NCBI GenBank assembly: GCA_947584415.1
Contig: CANPWN010000001.1
Location: forward strand, 13,216 to 77,215
Direction of reading: 5' to 3'
DNA length: 64,000 bases
Source: an uncultured Clostridia bacterium
GTDB taxonomy: Bacteria > Bacillota > Clostridia > Christensenellales > UBA1242
Of this stretch, positions 9,516 to 35,188 are shown piece after piece. Position 1 is the stretch's first letter, and each line of letters starts with the position of its first letter. The notes under the pieces were generated by a model, which had not been told where the DNA came from, searched no databases, and saw only the letters and a list, made by a program, of their open reading frames with translations. The position numbers and the translations under genes were made by a program.

Positions 9516-9725
9516 TTTTATTTTCTCCTTATTTTATTGTTTGCCTCAAGCAAACTTTTGCAAAGTTTCTTTCGGTTGCCGTCGGGCGAAGCCCTTCTTC
9601 GGCAAAGTTAACTTACGCGATTTTATATTGTCTTTGAGAAATTTTTAAAACCCCCTTCGACAACATTGTTTTTTAATTTTTAAACTTCAATCAGTTGTTT
9701 AATGAAGTTTGAATTAAACATTTTA

Positions 9726-9916
9726 ATCCGGAGTCTCACTTTCACGGAGAAGGGCTTTGCCCGGCGGGAAAGTGAGGCGAACCCTTCTCTCGCAGAAAAA
9801 TGCCCAGCGGGGTTTTTCAAGAGGCGAAAGGGGGCTCGTGGGGTCGGAACGAATTTCAGCGGTTAGGAAAACTTGTTTTCCGTGCCCGCGTTAAGAAATT
9901 CTAGTTCCCCCCACAC
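9726..9916. repeat. GC-rich interspersed structured element, copy A (about 191 nt) in the rpsG-fusA spacer
   Basis: Shares its conserved 5' 56 nt (atccggagtctcactttcacggagaagggct...) and 3' hairpin core (gcggttaggaaa..tttccgtgcccgcg) with 34324-34517. It is locally much more GC-rich than the surrounding AT-rich DNA. On the minus strand it begins 3 nt after the rpsG stop codon. Confidence 0.8.
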
Positions 9917-9919
9917 TTT

Positions 9920-10393
9920 TTACCATCTATAATGTGCAAAGGCTTTGTTTGCTTCTGCCATTCTGTGAAGTTCATCCCTGCGCTTGATTGACGCGCCTGT
10001 TCCATTGTAAGCGTCAATAAGTTCGCCTGCAAGACGAGCGTCCATTGTTCTCTCACCAGTTCTCTTTCTTGCGAAAGTAACAATCCAGCGAATTGCAAGT
10101 GTTTGACGGCGTTCTGGTCTGATTTCCATAGGAACTTGATAGTTTGCACCACCAACACGCCTTGCTTTTGTTTCAAGCATAGGTTTCACATTTTCAAGTG
10201 CCTGATTGAACACATCAATAGGCTCTAATCCTGTTTTTTCCTTAACAATGTCAAATGCACCATAAACTATTCTTTGAGCAAGACCTTTCTTTCCATCAAG
10301 CATAACTTGATTGATAAGTTTGGTTACAGTTTTGCTTTTATAAATAGGGTCAGGAAGGACAGGTTTTTTAACGGCACTATTTCTTCTTGCCAT
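9920..10393 (-). CDS. rpsG: 30S ribosomal protein S7
   Basis: Canonical S7 sequence, 157 aa, str operon. Confidence 0.97.
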
Positions 10394-11098: not shown

Positions 11099-14000
11099 TT
11101 ACCACGGAGTTTTCGCCTCTGTAAAACCATAAGCTTGCAATCTTGCCAAAATTTCTGCAGGTGTATGCATATTTGGAGTAACCCAACTTTCTATCTTATC
11201 TAATTTTACGATATCTCCAACTATCGCAACTAACGGATGATATGGAAGACCAAGCATAAAATTATCATTATATGCCCATGGCATTGAGTTGCTGTTATTA
11301 AAATCCCAATAGACTTTGCGTGAATTAATAAGGATGGAAATAAAAGTATCTCTATCAGTTGCTCCCACAAGAAATTCACCACCAACATCACCCGGGTCAA
11401 TGCCAAAAAGATAAGTTTCAACAATATCTCCTGTTATACCAGTGTCGCTCGTTGTCGTTGGAAGCAAAGTGTAATAAAATCCGTATGCAAATGAAATCCC
11501 AATGTTTATAGTCGTATTAGCAGTAACCGCTCCAATAAACGCAGAACAACCTTTAATATTTGGAATTGAACTCATCTCATAAATGTCTTGATTCTTTTCA
11601 ATCATAGTGCAACGACCAATGTTAACTTGCCAATTTGTAGCATCAACAATAAAGCCACTTATAAAACCTTCAGTCAAAGCAGAACGTTCACAATAGACAT
11701 TTACTAATGTGATTTGACCATAATACGGAGTTTTTGTAAACACATATCCGCCTATCAATGCACTTGGGGCTTCCCATGTGCTTGTTCCTATACATAAATT
11801 CAAAAAATTAATATTAGAAAGAGTCATTCTGGATGTGGCCCAAATGAAACACGCCATAGGTGCAGCCGTATCAAATTCAGCCACAGTGCCTTGATATGCA
11901 GGAGCATTGTCAATGCAGTTTAAATTGATGATGGAGTGTCCTTGTCCGTCCAATGTGCCACTAAAATATCTGATGGCTCTAAAATCAAATTCTAAAGCAG
12001 TGCAGTCAATGTCATTGTCAAGATAAAATGTCATATCAGAGAAACATTCTGGGCCGTTATAAGAGTAAGAATAATCCGACATTGCTACCAGGCCAGTGTA
12101 ATCAGTGATGTGATACGAGCCGTTAGAGGCTTTTGTTATGCCTGGATAAGAAAGAATTAAATTATCAAACGTTAATGCTTTAACCACCTTACTACTATTA
12201 TCTAGCCTCAAACATGGACGAATACCACAATCCAATGTTTTATTTTTATCACGTAATGCACCATATTCAGTTATTATGCAGGCACGATCATTTACGGAAC
12301 CAAATGAAAGTCCTTCCGAACGAAGCCAATATTCCCCGCCAGCCATCCTAGATGAATTTCGTTCGATTGTGCTAGTTTCTGCTTCACTTGACTGGTCAAC
12401 TTCTCCACCTGTGGCACTATGAGATGCAAGATAATATTTCCCTTCAGGATCGCTCGCTGGACAATATGTGCTGGTCATTTCAGTGTATGACAAAAGCCAA
12501 ACATAATCCTGTGTTTGATAAGTCGTATCATCAAGAAAGTCTCCAGTTGTATTAGTTTTGGAAACAACAAATCCACTATTTAATCCAGCATTCTTATAAA
12601 AAGTATTATTAAGCCAACCTGATATTGAATATTTATCATCTTGCCATGTTACAGAACCCTCACCATCAGAAAAAGGGAATTCTTCTAAAATAGTGTCAGA
12701 TATAACGTCAACTCGCGTTGCTGTTGCAGGGTTCTGTCCATCAATAATCCACCATTTGATTGGTTTTGAATTATATGTGCCAAGTTCTGTGTAATAATAT
12801 ATATGTCCATTTAAGACTTCTGGAGTCCATGTCAATGATGCCTGTTTGACTTCATATTTAAGCGTCAAACATGGACGAATGCCGAGATAAGTTAAATTTC
12901 TTTGATTTAAGGCAGAAAGTCCATATGCAACCCCATTAGACCCCGCAGTATAAATATCGTTTCCTGCCGCTGAACGTAACAGCCAGTTCGTTGTCCCTGT
13001 CCTATAATCAGACTTATATGATGATTCCATAACTGCATAATTGGCAATTGCAAAATCACTCGGAGAGGCCGTTCTGGAGCCAAATTGTGCTAAAGCTGTG
13101 GCTTCATGGTCGTTGTAATATCCTCCAGAACTTCTATGCGAAGATAGATAATATGTTGTATTGCCTTTAGGACTATATTTGTTTAACTCATCATACGACA
13201 TAAGATAAACATAGTCTGATGTGTTTGCTCCACTGCCATCAGAAGTGCTACTTGATGTGTTGTTTTTGACTGTTTCATTCTTTATCACAGATGTCTTGTA
13301 TGACGAAAGCCCAGAGTCTGTAAGAAATGTGCCATTTAACCAAGTGCGAACATTGGAACTACTCCATAAATTATTTGTTCCCGTTGAAAATGGAATATTC
13401 GCCGCAAGTGCAACATCTGAGATTACCCTTATCTCCTTTGTTCCAGAAACTGTGTTTGGATTTGTTCCATCAATTATCCACCATTTGATTGGCTCAACTT
13501 TAAACCATTTCGTTGCACCAGTTGAACCAACAGATGTCCCATTTTTAAAAGTGTAAGATGTGTTATATACCGTTTGACTTCCTGAAACATATTTTTGCCC
13601 AGAAAGGCTATATTCCGTCCATGTTTTGCTACCCACAGTGTATGTTTTTCCCGTTTTGGATGTAGGCGTTGAACCAGAATAATACATTTGAGGATAAGTG
13701 CCAAGTTCGGTGTAATAATATGTATTGCCGTTTAATGTTTCACTTTTCCATGTTATGTTTGATGTTGTTGCCGCCTCACCAACATCTGAGATTGTGGATG
13801 GCTCAGAAATATTGTTTAAAGGAATTGAAATTTGCGGGAAACAAAATAATGACAAAACAAATGCCATGAACAAATATGAAAATGAATGTCTCGTTTTTGA
13901 ATAGATGTTCTTCACATCCATTAGTATAGGTTTTTTTGATATTTTTAGCAAATATTTTTCGACATTTTGTCGAAATTTGCTTTTCTTTTTCTCCTTATTT

Positions 14001-14122
14001 TGTGGACAACTTTTAGTTAAGCAGTAAGGTTGCCCCCCCCCCGGTGACATTTTGTTACAAAAAGTTTTTTCATTTTCATTTTTTCCTTTTTGTGGATAAA
14101 CTTCTGTTATTAGTATAGCCAA
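11099..14122 (-). CDS. Large secreted protein: two DUF6273-like domains plus a C-terminal FxGxLDGQGHxI-type beta-helix domain (start codon ambiguous, see poly-G leader)
   Basis: Maximal ORF is 1007 aa. The signal-peptide-like segment YLFMAFVLSLFCFPQISIP follows the ATG at 13921. Two units of PIKWWIIDG...WLN.TF...WLLRS...GIRPCLTL are present. The C-terminal FSGTLDGQGHSIINL motif is shared with the 32879-34078 protein. Confidence 0.8.
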   Translation of the reverse strand: MAILITEVYPQKGKNENEKTFCNKMSPGGGQPYCLTKSCPQNKEKKKSKFRQNVEKYLLKISKKPILMDVKNIYSKTRHSFSYLFMAFVLSLFCFPQISIPLNNISEPSTISDVGEAATTSNITWKSETLNGNTYYYTELGTYPQMYYSGSTPTSKTGKTYTVGSKTWTEYSLSGQKYVSGSQTVYNTSYTFKNGTSVGSTGATKWFKVEPIKWWIIDGTNPNTVSGTKEIRVISDVALAANIPFSTGTNNLWSSSNVRTWLNGTFLTDSGLSSYKTSVIKNETVKNNTSSSTSDGSGANTSDYVYLMSYDELNKYSPKGNTTYYLSSHRSSGGYYNDHEATALAQFGSRTASPSDFAIANYAVMESSYKSDYRTGTTNWLLRSAAGNDIYTAGSNGVAYGLSALNQRNLTYLGIRPCLTLKYEVKQASLTWTPEVLNGHIYYYTELGTYNSKPIKWWIIDGQNPATATRVDVISDTILEEFPFSDGEGSVTWQDDKYSISGWLNNTFYKNAGLNSGFVVSKTNTTGDFLDDTTYQTQDYVWLLSYTEMTSTYCPASDPEGKYYLASHSATGGEVDQSSEAETSTIERNSSRMAGGEYWLRSEGLSFGSVNDRACIITEYGALRDKNKTLDCGIRPCLRLDNSSKVVKALTFDNLILSYPGITKASNGSYHITDYTGLVAMSDYSYSYNGPECFSDMTFYLDNDIDCTALEFDFRAIRYFSGTLDGQGHSIINLNCIDNAPAYQGTVAEFDTAAPMACFIWATSRMTLSNINFLNLCIGTSTWEAPSALIGGYVFTKTPYYGQITLVNVYCERSALTEGFISGFIVDATNWQVNIGRCTMIEKNQDIYEMSSIPNIKGCSAFIGAVTANTTINIGISFAYGFYYTLLPTTTSDTGITGDIVETYLFGIDPGDVGGEFLVGATDRDTFISILINSRKVYWDFNNSNSMPWAYNDNFMLGLPYHPLVAIVGDIVKLDKIESWVTPNMHTPAEILARLQAYGFTEAKTPW
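14033..14042 (-). repeat. Homopolymeric G10 tract (C10 on plus strand) in the 5' leader/N-terminal region of the 1007-aa gene
   Basis: Counted directly: 14033-14042 are all C. The tract lies 37 nt downstream of the RBS+ATG (14079). Confidence 0.9.
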
Positions 14123-14146
14123 AGTTAGACAAAAAACAAAGCAATT

Positions 14147-16105
14147 TTAATCTTTTTTCAGCATATTTTTGAGTTCTTCCTCGGAAATCATATTTATTCC
14201 AAGCTTCTTGGCCTTGTCAAATTTTGAGCCAGGGTTTTCGCCCAAGAGGATGAAGTCAGTCTTCTGCGACACAGAGCCGGACACTTCGCCGCCGTTTTCA
14301 AGAATAAGGTCGGTCGCTTCATTTCGCGACATTGTTGGCAGCGTTCCAGTTAGGACAAACTTTTTGCCGGCAATAGGCGAAGAGAAATCTCTTTCCTTTG
14401 GGTTGATGATATTAACTCCACGCTCAAGCAGGCGTTTGACTTCCGCTTTATTGTCCTCATCACGAACAAACTCAATGATGTTTTTGGCAATTGTTGGGCC
14501 TATGTCAGGGATAAGTTCAAGTTCTTGAAATTTGCAGTTCATGAAGTTGTCTAAATTTCCATAGCGGTTTGCCAAATCCCTCGCCGTTTTAATTCCCACT
14601 TCGCTTATGCCAAGTGCATAAATAAATCTGAAAAGTTCCCTATTTTTGCTTTTTTCAATGGAAGAATGCAAATTTCCGGACTTTTTTTCCTTAAATTTTT
14701 CAAGTTTAAGAAAATCTTGTGGTGATAGGTTGTAAAGGTCTGAAGGATGATGCACATTTAAATTATTTATGAGCGTGGTAATTGTCTTTTCGCTAAGGCC
14801 GTCAATATTCATGGCATCACGGGTGGCAAAATGCGTCAGTCTGCCCTCAATTTGGTCAAAGCAGTTGTCATGATTTATGCAATAAAGAAGTGGGCCTTTT
14901 TTGACAAGTGGGCATTTGCAACATGGGCAGAATTTTGGCTCTTCAATCTTTTTGGCGTTCTTGCCCTCCTCGGCAAGACCAAGCACCTCAGGGATGACCT
15001 CGTTTGACCTGCGGACAAAGACGCGGCTGCCAATTGAAACGCGTTTGCGCAAGATGTCATCATAGTTGTTAAGTGTTGCCTTTTGCACGGTCGCACCGGC
15101 AAGTTCAACAGGCTCTAAAACTGCGATAGGTGTCACCTTTCCCGTCCTGCCGACCTGCCAAATAACATCCTTCAAAAGAGTTGAAACTTCCTGTGCCTCA
15201 AACTTGAATGCAATTGCCCATTTTGGAAATTTTGTTGTCCAGCCAATATCTTCGCGGTATGCCATTTCATTTATACTTACAACCGCCCCATCAATCAAGA
15301 TGTCCAAATTGTTTTTTCTTGCGTCTATGGAATGAATTTCATTTAAAACCTCATCTTTCGTTGCCACAATTTTGAAATAATCACCAACTTCAAAGCCGTT
15401 TGCAATCAAAAATTCATGCAACTCTTGTTGGCTAGCAAAAGTTTTGCCCTCCGCCTGCAGAACTGCATAGCAGAAGAAGTCAAGCCTGCGTTTTGCCGTT
15501 TCCTTTGGGTCAAGATTTCGAATTGCACCCGCAACGCCATTTCTGGCATTTTTGAGTTTTTCTTCGGCAGTGCGGTTGTAAATTTTGAGCGCGTGATTTG
15601 TCATCATGCCCTCGCCTTCAACAAACAAATGTTTTTTAAATGGAATTTCAAGCGGAACAGAGCGAATTGTTTTGACTTGCTCACTGACATCCTCGCCGAC
15701 ATATCCATTTCCACGCGTTGTGGCTGAAACAAAGTGGCCTTTGTCATACTCAATCACAAGATGAAGTCCGTCAAATTTATATTCCACCGAAAAGGTCATT
15801 TTTGGGTTATAGGATGCCATGTCGCTCATCCATGACTTTAAGTCCTCTTCGTCACGCACTTTATTGAGCGAATAAAGTTTTTTCGGATGTTCCTTTTTCT
15901 GAAATCCTTCCAAAACTTCGCCGCCGACCCTCAATGTTGGCGAAGAAGGAAGAACAACTCCCGTTTCCTTTTCCAAGTCAACAAGTTGATAATAGAGTTT
16001 GTCATATTCGCTGTCCGAAATTGTTGGGCTGTCCAGGTCATAGTAATTATGATTATGCACAAGAATTTCATCAATCAGTTTTTGCATCTGTTCCGTTTTG
16101 TTCAT
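14147..16105 (-). CDS. ligA: NAD-dependent DNA ligase
   Basis: KLYSLNKV adenylation region, Zn-finger CPCCKCPL, HhH and BRCT (KKFVLTGTL); 652 aa. Confidence 0.95.
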   Translation of the reverse strand: MNKTEQMQKLIDEILVHNHNYYDLDSPTISDSEYDKLYYQLVDLEKETGVVLPSSPTLRVGGEVLEGFQKKEHPKKLYSLNKVRDEEDLKSWMSDMASYNPKMTFSVEYKFDGLHLVIEYDKGHFVSATTRGNGYVGEDVSEQVKTIRSVPLEIPFKKHLFVEGEGMMTNHALKIYNRTAEEKLKNARNGVAGAIRNLDPKETAKRRLDFFCYAVLQAEGKTFASQQELHEFLIANGFEVGDYFKIVATKDEVLNEIHSIDARKNNLDILIDGAVVSINEMAYREDIGWTTKFPKWAIAFKFEAQEVSTLLKDVIWQVGRTGKVTPIAVLEPVELAGATVQKATLNNYDDILRKRVSIGSRVFVRRSNEVIPEVLGLAEEGKNAKKIEEPKFCPCCKCPLVKKGPLLYCINHDNCFDQIEGRLTHFATRDAMNIDGLSEKTITTLINNLNVHHPSDLYNLSPQDFLKLEKFKEKKSGNLHSSIEKSKNRELFRFIYALGISEVGIKTARDLANRYGNLDNFMNCKFQELELIPDIGPTIAKNIIEFVRDEDNKAEVKRLLERGVNIINPKERDFSSPIAGKKFVLTGTLPTMSRNEATDLILENGGEVSGSVSQKTDFILLGENPGSKFDKAKKLGINMISEEELKNMLKKD

Positions 16106-22143: not shown

Positions 22144-22623
22144 TTAAATAATAGAATTTTTTCCGAAATTTTTTATTATCAACTTTTTTAATTCTTCCTT
22201 TTCAATAGGACTATTAGAGTGCGAACCAACACAGTCCCAAATCACATAAGGGCGAATGTTGTGGTCAAAAAGTTGAAACATAATTGCAAGCACACAAGAG
22301 TCATAATCCGTGCCACAAAGATAGCACTCCTTACCTTTTATACCCCCCCCCGCAAAAATTTCATCTGGAAGAGCATAAGAGGTCTTTTCAATCACTTGTG
22401 TATTTTTTGGAAGTGCCACAACAATTTGTTGTTCATCCGCCTCCGTGAACCTGTGCCAATCTAAAAATTTAGCATAAGGACTTTGAGGTGAATTGACAAA
22501 CTTAGTGGCAATAATTTTATCAAATTTACTGTTTTTGAGCAATTTTTCAATATTTTTTTGCAAAAATTCATTATTTTTTGTGATAAATCCTTTTTGCATA
22601 TCAACAACAATAAGTGTTTTCAT
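22144..22623 (-). CDS. Isochorismatase-family cysteine hydrolase
   Basis: IVVDMQKGF (Asp), ATKF (Lys) and GTDYDSCVLA (Cys) match the isochorismatase/nicotinamidase triad pattern. It is inserted between dnaK and dnaJ. Confidence 0.7.
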   Translation of the reverse strand: MKTLIVVDMQKGFITKNNEFLQKNIEKLLKNSKFDKIIATKFVNSPQSPYAKFLDWHRFTEADEQQIVVALPKNTQVIEKTSYALPDEIFAGGGIKGKECYLCGTDYDSCVLAIMFQLFDHNIRPYVIWDCVGSHSNSPIEKEELKKLIIKNFGKNSII

Positions 22624-32878: not shown

Positions 32879-34078
32879 TTAATTAACTTGTCCTGCCCAA
32901 TAAAAGTGCCTAAGATGTGGCTGTCCGTCTGCCCCTGTAAACCATTTGGATGGAGTGAAACTGGATTCGATGGCCTCGCCATTGACATAGACACCTTGAT
33001 AATTACACCAATAATAGCTTGGAAAATATTCACCACCTTCAAAAAAAAGCCCTCCATAAGCCAGACAGTTGAATGCACAATCATAAAAAGTAATGTTATA
33101 ATCATGTGTATAACTGAAAAGACAATAGCTACTCCCATTACCCTTATTTATGTAAAATTCACATCCTGTACACGTAAAACTGGAGAATGCGGCAACCTCT
33201 AACAACTGACATAACCACAAATAATTTACATCAATTAAAACATTATTCAAAATGACATCTGCAAACCCCTCGCCGTCATATGTATCAATAATTAAACACA
33301 TACCATCCGCTATAATTACTGAGTCTGTCATGTAGATCTCAGAACGACCATAATTATCTGTATAAGTGGTTCCTACCAAGGTATCACAAATCGCTTCACG
33401 ATTAATAAAATTTAAATCACTTATAATCAATTTGCCATGCAAATTTGCACAAAGATTGCCGCATTCTTTAATTTTTATATGTGAAATGCGGCACATATCA
33501 AATGCGGAACATATGAGAGGAGCACTTATTCCTTCAATAGTAATATTTTGTAAAGTAAAATCACGCACAGAGTCGAACAAGTAATAGCCATCATATGTAA
33601 TAGTATGCCCTTGCCCATCAAAAATACCTTTTATATATTCTGAACTGATAAGTGTTGGTTCGTAGCCAGTCAAATCAAGGTTATCGTCAAGAAGATATTT
33701 ATAATCACTATAAAAAGTCACTTCAGGATTAGCAAGAGCCTCTTGCAAAAAAAGATAGCCATCAATTGAGTTTATGTGAATACTTACACATGATGAAATA
33801 TAAGTCTCATCATATCCTTTCCAAATTCCACTTCCATCATCCTCATAATAAGGCACCATATCTTCAAATTCTGTATATTCATCCGTTACAGCAGTGGCTT
33901 CAGTCGGCAAAGCGGTGACATCAGTGGTTGGAAGAGCATTCAACGGAAGGCAAAGAAGAGCAAAAATAAAAGCCAAGGCGGTTGAAAAAATTATTTTCAA
34001 AAGCCCCGGCTGTTTTGAAAAATGTGGATAATTTTTAGTTAGGCAGTAAGGCTGCCCCCCCCCCCCGGTGGGTAACAA
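32879..34078 (-). CDS. Secreted beta-helix protein (FDGQGHTI motif family); start ambiguous, see poly-G leader
   Basis: The track ORF starts at a TTG. The hydrophobic signal-like segment is KIIFSTALAFIFALLCLPLNA. GIFDGQGHTITYDG plus Cys/aromatic-rich beta-helix-like repeats, ending ..GQPHLRHFYWAGQVN. Confidence 0.75.
   Translation of the reverse strand: MLPTGGGGQPYCLTKNYPHFSKQPGLLKIIFSTALAFIFALLCLPLNALPTTDVTALPTEATAVTDEYTEFEDMVPYYEDDGSGIWKGYDETYISSCVSIHINSIDGYLFLQEALANPEVTFYSDYKYLLDDNLDLTGYEPTLISSEYIKGIFDGQGHTITYDGYYLFDSVRDFTLQNITIEGISAPLICSAFDMCRISHIKIKECGNLCANLHGKLIISDLNFINREAICDTLVGTTYTDNYGRSEIYMTDSVIIADGMCLIIDTYDGEGFADVILNNVLIDVNYLWLCQLLEVAAFSSFTCTGCEFYINKGNGSSYCLFSYTHDYNITFYDCAFNCLAYGGLFFEGGEYFPSYYWCNYQGVYVNGEAIESSFTPSKWFTGADGQPHLRHFYWAGQVN
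34055..34066 (-). repeat. Homopolymeric G12 tract (C12 on plus strand) in the 5' leader of the 399-aa gene
   Basis: Counted directly: 34055-34066 are all C. The tract lies 22 nt downstream of GAGGAaaaaATG (ATG at 34088). Confidence 0.9.
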
Positions 34079-34170
34079 AATGTTTCATTTTTTCCTCGCT
34101 TGTATTTTGTCTATGTGGATAACTTACAAAGGTATTATAACCGAAAATTAGCGAATAACCAAACAAAATA

Positions 34171-34203: not shown

Positions 34204-34318
34204 AAAACGAGCAGTGTTGCCCGTTTTTTTGTTGCACCCGACAAGTTTTTTACTTGGAGACCAATTTTATGGGGGAAGGGCTTTGCCCGACCAAAAATTC
34301 TAGTTGCACCAGCGATTT
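34204..34318. repeat. Two internally deleted copies (C2 34204-34255, C1 34262-34318) of the GC-rich element
   Basis: On the minus strand C2 reads aaaacttgtcgggtgcaacaaaaaaacgggca..ttttccc, matching the copy B 5' hairpin. C1 reads ggtgcaactagaattt..gggcaaagcccttc, joining 5' and 3' motifs of copy A. Confidence 0.65.
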
Positions 34319-34323
34319 TAAGC

Positions 34324-34517
34324 ATCCGGAGTCTCACTTTCACGGAGAAGGGCTCTGTCCGGCGGAAAAGTGAGACGAACACCTCTACCACGTCGCAAGG
34401 CGCAGGTATCAAGTCTTGCAGTGGTGCGAAGGGGGGCCTGTGGGGGGAAACAAAAAAAAGCGGTTAGGAAACAATGTTTCCGTGCCCGCGTTTTCTTTTT
34501 TTGTTGCACCCCACAAG
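34324..34517. repeat. GC-rich interspersed structured element, copy B (about 194 nt)
   Basis: Its 5' 56 nt are about 90 percent identical to 9726-9781, and its 3' hairpin core is shared with copy A. On the minus strand it starts 3 nt after the stop of the 222-aa gene. Confidence 0.8.
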
Positions 34518-34519
34518 TT

Positions 34520-35188
34520 TTAGAACCTCGGTTGATTTATTGGCCCTGTTGCCGTTGGATAGAGCGGCATTTCAAAGAGTCCTGGGCAAGCACTTGATGA
34601 CGGTGCTGCCTGGCATGGTGGGATAACAGGATAACCATAAGATGGCACAAGCACATCAACGAGTGCTGTCACCCTCAAAATTACTTGTAAGCAGCCGGTT
34701 ACAGTGAAGGTGTTTTCAGCCGTGTAAGAGCCAATTTCACTTGAGAACACAGCGCTTGCAGAAATGTTGATTGGAGTGACAGAAGGTTGAGGAACAAAAA
34801 GAATTACGCTTTTTGAAACGGTGATTGTGCTTGTTCCTGTGCCAAGAACGCCGTTTGCATCACGATAAGTCACCACAATTGGGATGGTCACATTTGCACT
34901 CACATTAGCATAGTTTGGGCTGGAGTCAATTCTGTCCACAACAAGGTCAGATATGGTCACTGGACCATTTGTTGCGTTTGCAGCAGAAACATATGTGAGT
35001 GGCAAGGCTGGAGAAGCCGGAGTTAAATCAGTGACTGCAAGCACAATGCCAGTTTCGGTGCTTTGTGACACGCAGGCGTCAAAAACCTTGGTTGTTTCAA
35101 TCAAGATTTTTTCACAAATCCCATTGAGCGGGTTGCCCATAATAGGCCCTGGACGATTAGGATTTGTATTATTGATGTAAAAAGACAT
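34520..35188 (-). CDS. 222-aa beta-rich Thr/Ser/Val/Pro-rich protein, candidate spore-surface/coat component
   Basis: Strong RBS (ataGGAGGtaggaaaATG), no signal peptide, and a Pro-rich Cys-containing tail (PPCQAAPSSSACPGLF). A sigma-K-like promoter lies upstream. Confidence 0.6.
   Translation of the reverse strand: MSFYINNTNPNRPGPIMGNPLNGICEKILIETTKVFDACVSQSTETGIVLAVTDLTPASPALPLTYVSAANATNGPVTISDLVVDRIDSSPNYANVSANVTIPIVVTYRDANGVLGTGTSTITVSKSVILFVPQPSVTPINISASAVFSSEIGSYTAENTFTVTGCLQVILRVTALVDVLVPSYGYPVIPPCQAAPSSSACPGLFEMPLYPTATGPINQPRF

Follow-up and report, generated by a model that had tools for sequence, protein, structure and literature searches.

What is a run of ten guanines doing between a start codon with a Shine-Dalgarno (SD) sequence and the body of a gene for a secreted protein? 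In the 64,000-nucleotide stretch of an uncultured Clostridia bacterium analyzed here (contig CANPWN010000001.1, hereafter the window), such a run lies on the minus strand near 14 kb (locus 1), and the same short leader heads a second, diverged surface-protein gene near 34 kb (locus 2). The SD-linked start is out of frame with the long open reading frame (ORF) at both loci in this assembly. We consider it likely that each locus is a translational slipped-strand phase-variation switch, that is, a contingency locus in which the number of G's would set the gene ON (leader ATG in frame with the protein body) or OFF (out of frame).

Tract length and reading frame at the two loci

The elements of locus 1, in their order on the minus strand, are the following.

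14112-14117, minus strand: -10-like hexamer TATACT, inside CTATACTAAT and 25 nt downstream of the ligA stop codon (sequence reading)
14091-14099, minus strand: box 1, TTATCCACA, an exact DnaA-box consensus in the 5' untranslated region (UTR), between the -10 hexamer and the SD
14077-14088, minus strand: SD AAGGA (14088-14084) and leader ATG (14079-14077) (sequence reading)
14033-14042, minus strand: G10 homopolymer, the proposed slippage site (sequence and frame simulation)
14032-14001, minus strand: CAACCTTACTGCTTAACTAAAAGTTGTCCACA, directly 3' of G10 (sequence reading)
14013-14019, minus strand: TAACTAA, with one TAA for each OFF frame (14019-14017 and 14015-14013), a motif kept in locus 2
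14001-14009, minus strand: box 2, TTGTCCACA, one mismatch relative to TTATCCACA, encoding (S)CPQ in the ON frame
13922-14000, minus strand: in-frame segment of 79 nt specific to locus 1, between box 2 and the signal peptide
13921-13826, minus strand: signal peptide, counted from ATG 13921 (translation)
11099-13921, minus strand: protein body, 940 aa from ATG 13921, to which database protein P0001 is 100% identical

Locus 2 has the same layout.

34134-34139, minus strand: predicted -10 hexamer TATAAT, with TTGGTT 17 nt upstream
34114-34122, minus strand: box 1, TTATCCACA, in the 5' UTR
34086-34096, minus strand: SD AGGA (34096-34093) and leader ATG (34088-34086) (sequence reading)
34055-34066, minus strand: G12 homopolymer (sequence and frame simulation)
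34035-34041, minus strand: TAACTAA, with a TAA in each OFF frame (frame simulation)
34023-34031, minus strand: box 2, TTATCCACA, encoding YPH in the ON frame
32879-34000, minus strand: body ORF, in frame from TTG 34000, 374 codons, with signal peptide KIIFSTALAFIFALLCLPLNA

The minus-strand elements that an earlier note on this DNA had listed for the 14-kb leader are all where it placed them, as is the second leader that it reported at 34 kb with a different tract length (G12 at 34066-34055, behind ATG 34088). TATACT, whose counterpart in the alignment with locus 2 is TATAAT, probably serves as a promoter element, as do TATAAT and TTGGTT at locus 2. Counted from the A of ATG 14079, 37 nt precede the G10 tract, so that the 37 nt which the note had put between ATG and tract include the ATG itself; at locus 2, G12 starts 22 nt downstream of the A of ATG 34088. 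The long ORF of locus 1 spans 11099-14122, and the first in-frame ATG of its body, at 13921, is preceded by aaaaaaacctatacta, which contains no SD, as had been claimed. TTG 34000 is likewise without an SD.

Tract lengths from n = 7 to n = 15 were simulated at both loci. In these simulations, 8, 11, and 14 are the only values of n that bring the SD-linked ATG into frame with the long ORF, and the previously proposed rule, n = 2 mod 3, holds at both loci. All other lengths yield peptides of 14-23 aa ending at TAA codons 3' of the tract; the native products are MKMKKLFVTKCHRGGGNLTA followed by a stop at locus 1 (G10) and MKHFVTHRGGGAALLPN followed by a stop at locus 2 (G12). At n = 10 the stop is TAA 14019-14017, which starts 14 nt after the last G and not 15 nt after the tract as the note had it, but its description of locus 1 as "currently OFF" is right for the SD-linked start, which is out of frame at G10. 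The conserved (T/C)TAACTAA 3' of the tract places a TAA in each OFF frame 4-5 codons on and is read as L-T-K when ON, a double TAA arrangement that fits a switch. At both loci, then, a repeat of about 8 or more units lies between start and body, and the repeat number sets the frame, with the other lengths ending translation early.

Over the tract, a 42-nt block is 90% identical between locus 1 and locus 2 (repeat family D9; alignment). Ten overlapping G8 matches were counted, all in three tracts, far more than the mean of 0.41 in shuffled sequences, none of which reached 10; chance does not account for the tracts. Two of the three G tracts of at least 9 nt are located in the same leader.

The third tract of the window, G9 at 22343-22351 on the minus strand, lies in the middle of ORF 22144-22623, an unrelated gene of the isochorismatase family between dnaK and dnaJ. 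It is now in frame (..EIFAGGGIKGKE..) and could be another contingency site or a mere Gly-Gly-Gly run.

In-frame paralogues and distant relatives

If the leader ATG is the start codon in use, ON versions of the gene should read through the tract. In most genes of the window, a clear SD (AGGAG or GGAGG) precedes the start codon by 5-10 nt, and at both loci an AGGA stands five bases before the leader ATG. When the simulated ON protein was used as query, the search recovered P0001, the window's own protein as called from ATG 13921, together with P0002 and P0003. These two are paralogue-like proteins, and their N-termini, MKKLFVTKYHRGGGQPYCLTKNYPHFQKQPGLLKIFFSSALAFVLSMFCFPNIS... and MQHFVTHRGGGQPYCLTKSYPHF..., respectively, correspond to the leader as predicted for the in-frame state. 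The post-tract leader, run by filter-free phmmer against 1.84 billion representatives, brought in P0007 and P0008 and no further true matches. P0002, P0003, P0007, and P0008 all read M(K/Q)HFVTHRGGGQPYCLTK[NS]YPHF, followed by a signal peptide, and all are called from the leader ATG; residues 1-32 of P0007 are identical to simulated ON locus 2. If GGG is used for every glycine, HRGGGQ implies a tract of 11 G, so the four ON copies probably have n = 11. The SD-linked start is in frame in four of the six paralogues, and these four database proteins bear out the earlier proposal of a true start at the SD-linked ATG, joined to the ORF at n = 11.

These four proteins, as well as LigA, EF-G, and S7 of the window, are all singleton 90% clusters from NCBI, so the lineage has essentially one genome in the collections; most likely, the four ON genes sit on other contigs of the same assembly. 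Leader and signal peptide are 70-79% identical between paralogues, and the bodies only 27-43%. Judged by these identities, leader and signal peptide together behave as a conserved cassette heading diverged genes.

The products are secreted or surface proteins, as indicated by signal peptides and DUF6273, and the bodies are otherwise intact over 940 codons (locus 1) and 374 codons (locus 2). The locus 1 protein consists of a signal peptide, two DUF6273 domains (E = 2.6e-24), and a C-terminal domain. DUF6273 has a C-type-lectin-like fold and is often a variable ligand-binding module (PMC10743442). The C-terminal domain spans about 330 aa, contains a DGQGH motif, and is common to all six paralogues; the locus 2 body carries it as well, and a terminator-like hairpin follows the stop codon there. 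Sequence searches of PDB found no relatives of the proteins, and NCBIfam gave no family matches to them. More distant homologues carry GLUG, Flg_new, and LRR_5 domains, and the named ones come from metagenome-assembled genomes (MAGs) of Clostridia or Clostridiales. DUF6273 is a common target of diversity-generating retroelements, a reading that was set aside here: the sole internal repeat, D7, is the DUF6273 duplication, and its differences are not adenine-specific.

The wider family extends the pattern. GGG occurs within the first 60 residues of 32 of the 121 family members (26%), compared with 3.6% of other 60-residue segments, and does so in about nine different sequence contexts. Several family N-termini are frame-shifted readings of the same DNA; P0121 (MPYSVIRPDNCGGG), for instance, is the +2 frame of P0104 (VCLTVLSALIIAGGG).

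The DNA of three family groups from metagenomes was read (L001-L002, L003-L005, and L006-L007). In the first, a pair of orthologues with 94% identity, the SD-linked ATG is in frame in L001 (G10) and out of frame in L002 (G9), and no indel other than the tract occurs in the coding stretch. The second, also of orthologues, shows the same at 97% identity, again with the tract as sole indel in the coding stretch: L003 is in frame at G9, and L004 and L005 are out of frame at G11. In the third, L006 and L007 are out of frame at G9, with a stop 4 codons after the tract; in the homologous proteins P0091, P0059, and P0100 the tract is read through in frame (MRRKFAGGGIFDKLK...), from which the ON length in this group would be G10. 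L004 and L005 come from two independent assemblies and agree in tract length, as do L006 and L007. On these sequences, G-tract length repeatedly decides the predicted frame at the 5' ends of genes in this family. Together, the in-frame paralogues and the tract-dependent frame in three distant groups support the slipped-strand phase switch that the earlier note had suggested.

In the genes for about a quarter of the homologous surface proteins (Clostridia-type MAGs; L001-L007, P0013-P0129), a G tract lies within the stretch encoding the signal peptide or directly upstream of it. Automatic gene calls on such genes are inconsistent, with wrong-frame upstream starts or downstream Met starts, which inflates apparent protein diversity. 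A conserved GC-rich 5' UTR of about 110 nt, maybe a structured leader, lies between TATAAT and the SD in L003 (1400-1500) and L004 (1350-1460).

The proposed switch and its rivals

In the mechanism that we propose, a sigma-70-type promoter would give an mRNA whose SD-linked ATG opens the conserved leader MK(MKKL/H)FVT(KC)HR-Gly(n)-QPYCLTK. The glycine codons would be the G homopolymer, and the leader would continue into the signal peptide of a secreted protein with C-type-lectin-like domains. Slipped-strand mispairing in replication would add or remove G's. With 11 G's (or 8, 14) the leader ATG would share the frame of the body and yield the full pre-protein; with the 10 of locus 1 or the 12 of locus 2, translation would halt at a TAA 4-5 codons past the tract, leaving the body untranslated from the efficient start. 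Slippage presumably proceeds at a useful rate in this organism, and the OFF states are presumably truly silent. Because the same leader and signal-peptide cassette stands on at least six diverged paralogues, each could switch independently, and independent switching would give combinatorial cell-surface variation.

Several observations weigh against this mechanism. Each locus of the window is represented by one assembly, and the length differences are those between paralogues (n = 10, 12, and a deduced 11 in four) and among distant members. Stops in both OFF frames within five codons are unremarkable in AT-rich DNA (rough estimate, p about 0.2, not significant). About a quarter to a third of the window genes have no obvious SD, and locus 1 read from ATG 13921 has a complete, normal-looking signal peptide (MDVKNIYSKTRHSFSYLFMAFVLSLFCFPQIS), so that expression independent of the tract would be possible. 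Both tracts are exactly one base off an ON length, and a miscall would look alike. Additionally, searches of GTDB species representatives, JGI metagenomes, and IMG/VR did not find the leader. The exact leader pattern CARCCTTACTGCYTAACTAAAA had zero matches in genome, metagenome, and viral contigs, and degenerate peptide-pattern scans of the same three collections (alignment A4) gave chance pattern matches only. Exact-protein look-ups of LigA, S7, P0001-P0003, P0007, and P0008 returned no matching contigs, and a word-indexed search with the leader-only alignment A3 returned no matches.

The single-base offsets bear directly on one rival, an assembly artefact, in which both loci would truly have G11 and in-frame genes, with the G10 and G12 tracts miscalled. 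Long-read or low-coverage consensus sequences of MAGs typically carry homopolymer errors of this type, the source is apparently a draft assembly with contigs of 25-142 kb, and all four other database paralogues are in frame. However, an artefact needs errors in opposite directions at two loci alongside correct calls at four other tracts, and among the distant members out-of-frame lengths recur in independent assemblies (G11 in L004 and L005, G9 in L006 and L007), which makes this explanation unlikely. Even if it were correct, a G11 tract there would still be hypermutable; only "currently OFF" would fall, and the switch reading would survive.

A further role for the cassette, on top of the frame switch, is raised by the boxes. 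All three exact copies of TTATCCACA in the 64-kb window are in the two leaders (14091-14099, 34114-34122, and 34023-34031, minus strand). In each leader the boxes are direct repeats 90-91 nt apart that flank the SD, the ATG, and the G tract, and in the alignment of locus 1 with locus 2, box 1 is conserved, whereas the rest of the 5' UTR around it is not. The module order is promoter, TTATCCACA, SD-ATG, leader, Gn, double stop, TTATCCACA. We think it quite unlikely that the cassette is a portable regulatory module with the TTATCCACA repeats as putative operators for DnaA or another protein or, alternatively, that the leader peptide HRGGGQPYCLTKNYPHF is a new sorting signal. If true, operator boxes would add physiological or replication-linked control over a stochastic switch.

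The leader might instead be an upstream ORF or regulatory region, with the proteins starting at ATG 13921 and TTG 34000 regardless of the tract, whose effect would then be weak at most. The depositor annotation does begin locus 1 at ATG 13921 (P0001, 940 aa), a start that gives a canonical signal peptide, and some window genes have no SD. Locus 1 also has about 44 additional in-frame codons between box 2 and the signal peptide relative to its paralogues, and the extra 79-nt segment (13922-14000) contains promoter-like and SD-like motifs upstream of 13921. These are a second copy of the 10-mer CTATACTAAT, the first copy of which is the upstream -10 region (14118-14109), and an AAGGAG without a start codon at SD distance; the segment, which neither locus 2 nor any of the four ON paralogues has, further holds a hairpin of 8 bp (13975-13957). 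However, the promoter-like -10 of this insert ends 2 nt before ATG 13921, too close to serve it, and neither ATG 13921 nor TTG 34000 has an SD. Four paralogues read the leader in frame into the signal peptide, with amino acids conserved through and past the tract, and of the four post-tract nucleotide differences between the loci, two (CAA/CAG and TTA/CTA) leave the amino acid of the ORF frame unchanged. A downstream start is improbable on this evidence.

Decay, by which loci 1 and 2 would be frameshifted pseudogene copies and not reversible switches, would account for an SD-linked start that is out of frame at both loci, but it is highly improbable given that no other disruption occurs in 940 + 374 codons, that the sole lesion is in a hypermutable homopolymer, and that the same pattern recurs in more distant family members.

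Three further readings were set aside. Transcriptional phase variation through a promoter spacer was rejected, as the tract lies 70 nt or more downstream of the -10 hexamer, past the SD and ATG; a tract at that position, about 70 nt past the -10 and 3' of the ATG, would act on the reading frame. Programmed recoding is unlikely, with four of six paralogues in frame and distant members showing both states. Rfam gave no gathering-score matches in the window and only sub-threshold ones in 13850-14200. RNA folding predicted no structure common to both leaders (locus 2 z-score, 0.09), and a riboswitch-like or attenuator reading was dropped for lack of a shared leader fold.

Neighboring genes and known contingency loci

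The upstream neighbor of locus 1 is the NAD-dependent DNA ligase gene ligA (14147-16105), which ends at 14147. The gene order of the window (pcrA-ligA, hrcA-grpE-dnaK-dnaJ, yloV, and murD) fits a Firmicute; hrcA and grpE were assigned from a reading of their translations, not from a family search. Elsewhere in the window, an element of about 200 nt is repeated at 9715-9925 and at 34310-34525 (minus strand), with a partial third piece at 34247-34289. Both full copies begin right after a stop codon, one that of rpsG, in an unusually long rpsG-fusA spacer of 404 nt, and the other that of ORF 34520-35188. The copies are 75-90% identical, RNAalifold predicts 54 pairs, 10 of them with pairing kept through two-sided changes, and no Rfam family matches the element, which may be an undescribed structured RNA or repeat element.

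Homopolymer phase variation is textbook knowledge in Neisseria, Haemophilus, Campylobacter, Helicobacter, and mycoplasmas. The Neisseria pilC gene has a poly-G tract, and opa has CTCTT repeats in its signal-peptide coding region; opa is, moreover, a multigene family with a common 5' leader whose copies switch independently. As here, the repeat in these genes lies between the start codon and the mature protein and gives translational ON/OFF control. Unlike here, these genes belong to a Gram-negative proteobacterium and encode outer-membrane proteins, the opa repeat is a pentamer, and the sequences are unrelated. Campylobacter jejuni and Helicobacter pylori carry G tracts of 8-13 in low-GC genomes, in surface-structure genes, with lengths that vary between and within strains, but their poly-G/C tracts are mostly scattered in the coding regions of unrelated genes, with no common leader cassette. 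In Treponema pallidum tpr and Neisseria porA and opc, promoter poly-G lies upstream of the bodies of surface-protein genes, as the tract does here, but acts on transcription by way of the promoter or its spacer, whereas the tract described here would act on the reading frame.

Homopolymers in 5' coding regions are an established device of reversible inactivation, including in inlA, a Firmicute surface-protein gene (PMC2831843). Like the loci described here, inlA of Listeria monocytogenes is a Firmicute gene for a secreted or surface protein with a homopolymer few codons past the start, where a frameshift leads to a very short peptide (PMC2831843), and the poly(A) change reverts at high frequency (Orsi et al. 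2010, PMC2831843). It differs in having poly(A) in place of poly(G) and in being a single gene and not a paralogous family with a leader cassette, and the protein families are unrelated. Our literature searches found no report of homopolymer phase variation for uncultured gut-type Clostridia-like Firmicutes and no description of this protein family, its switch, or a cassette with flanking TTATCCACA repeats. The kind of switch is itself known; its novelty here lies in the host, from a little-studied group of bacteria, in the protein family, and in a shared cassette flanked by TTATCCACA repeats.

This lineage thus has a secreted lectin-like family that shares one probable switch cassette, and G tracts within the signal peptide or immediately ahead of it recur in many distant relatives. 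Gene callers mis-start or split such genes, as with P0001, called from an ATG without an SD, and P0121 and P0123, called in the wrong upstream frame, and when MAGs are compared, phase states will pass for differences in gene content.

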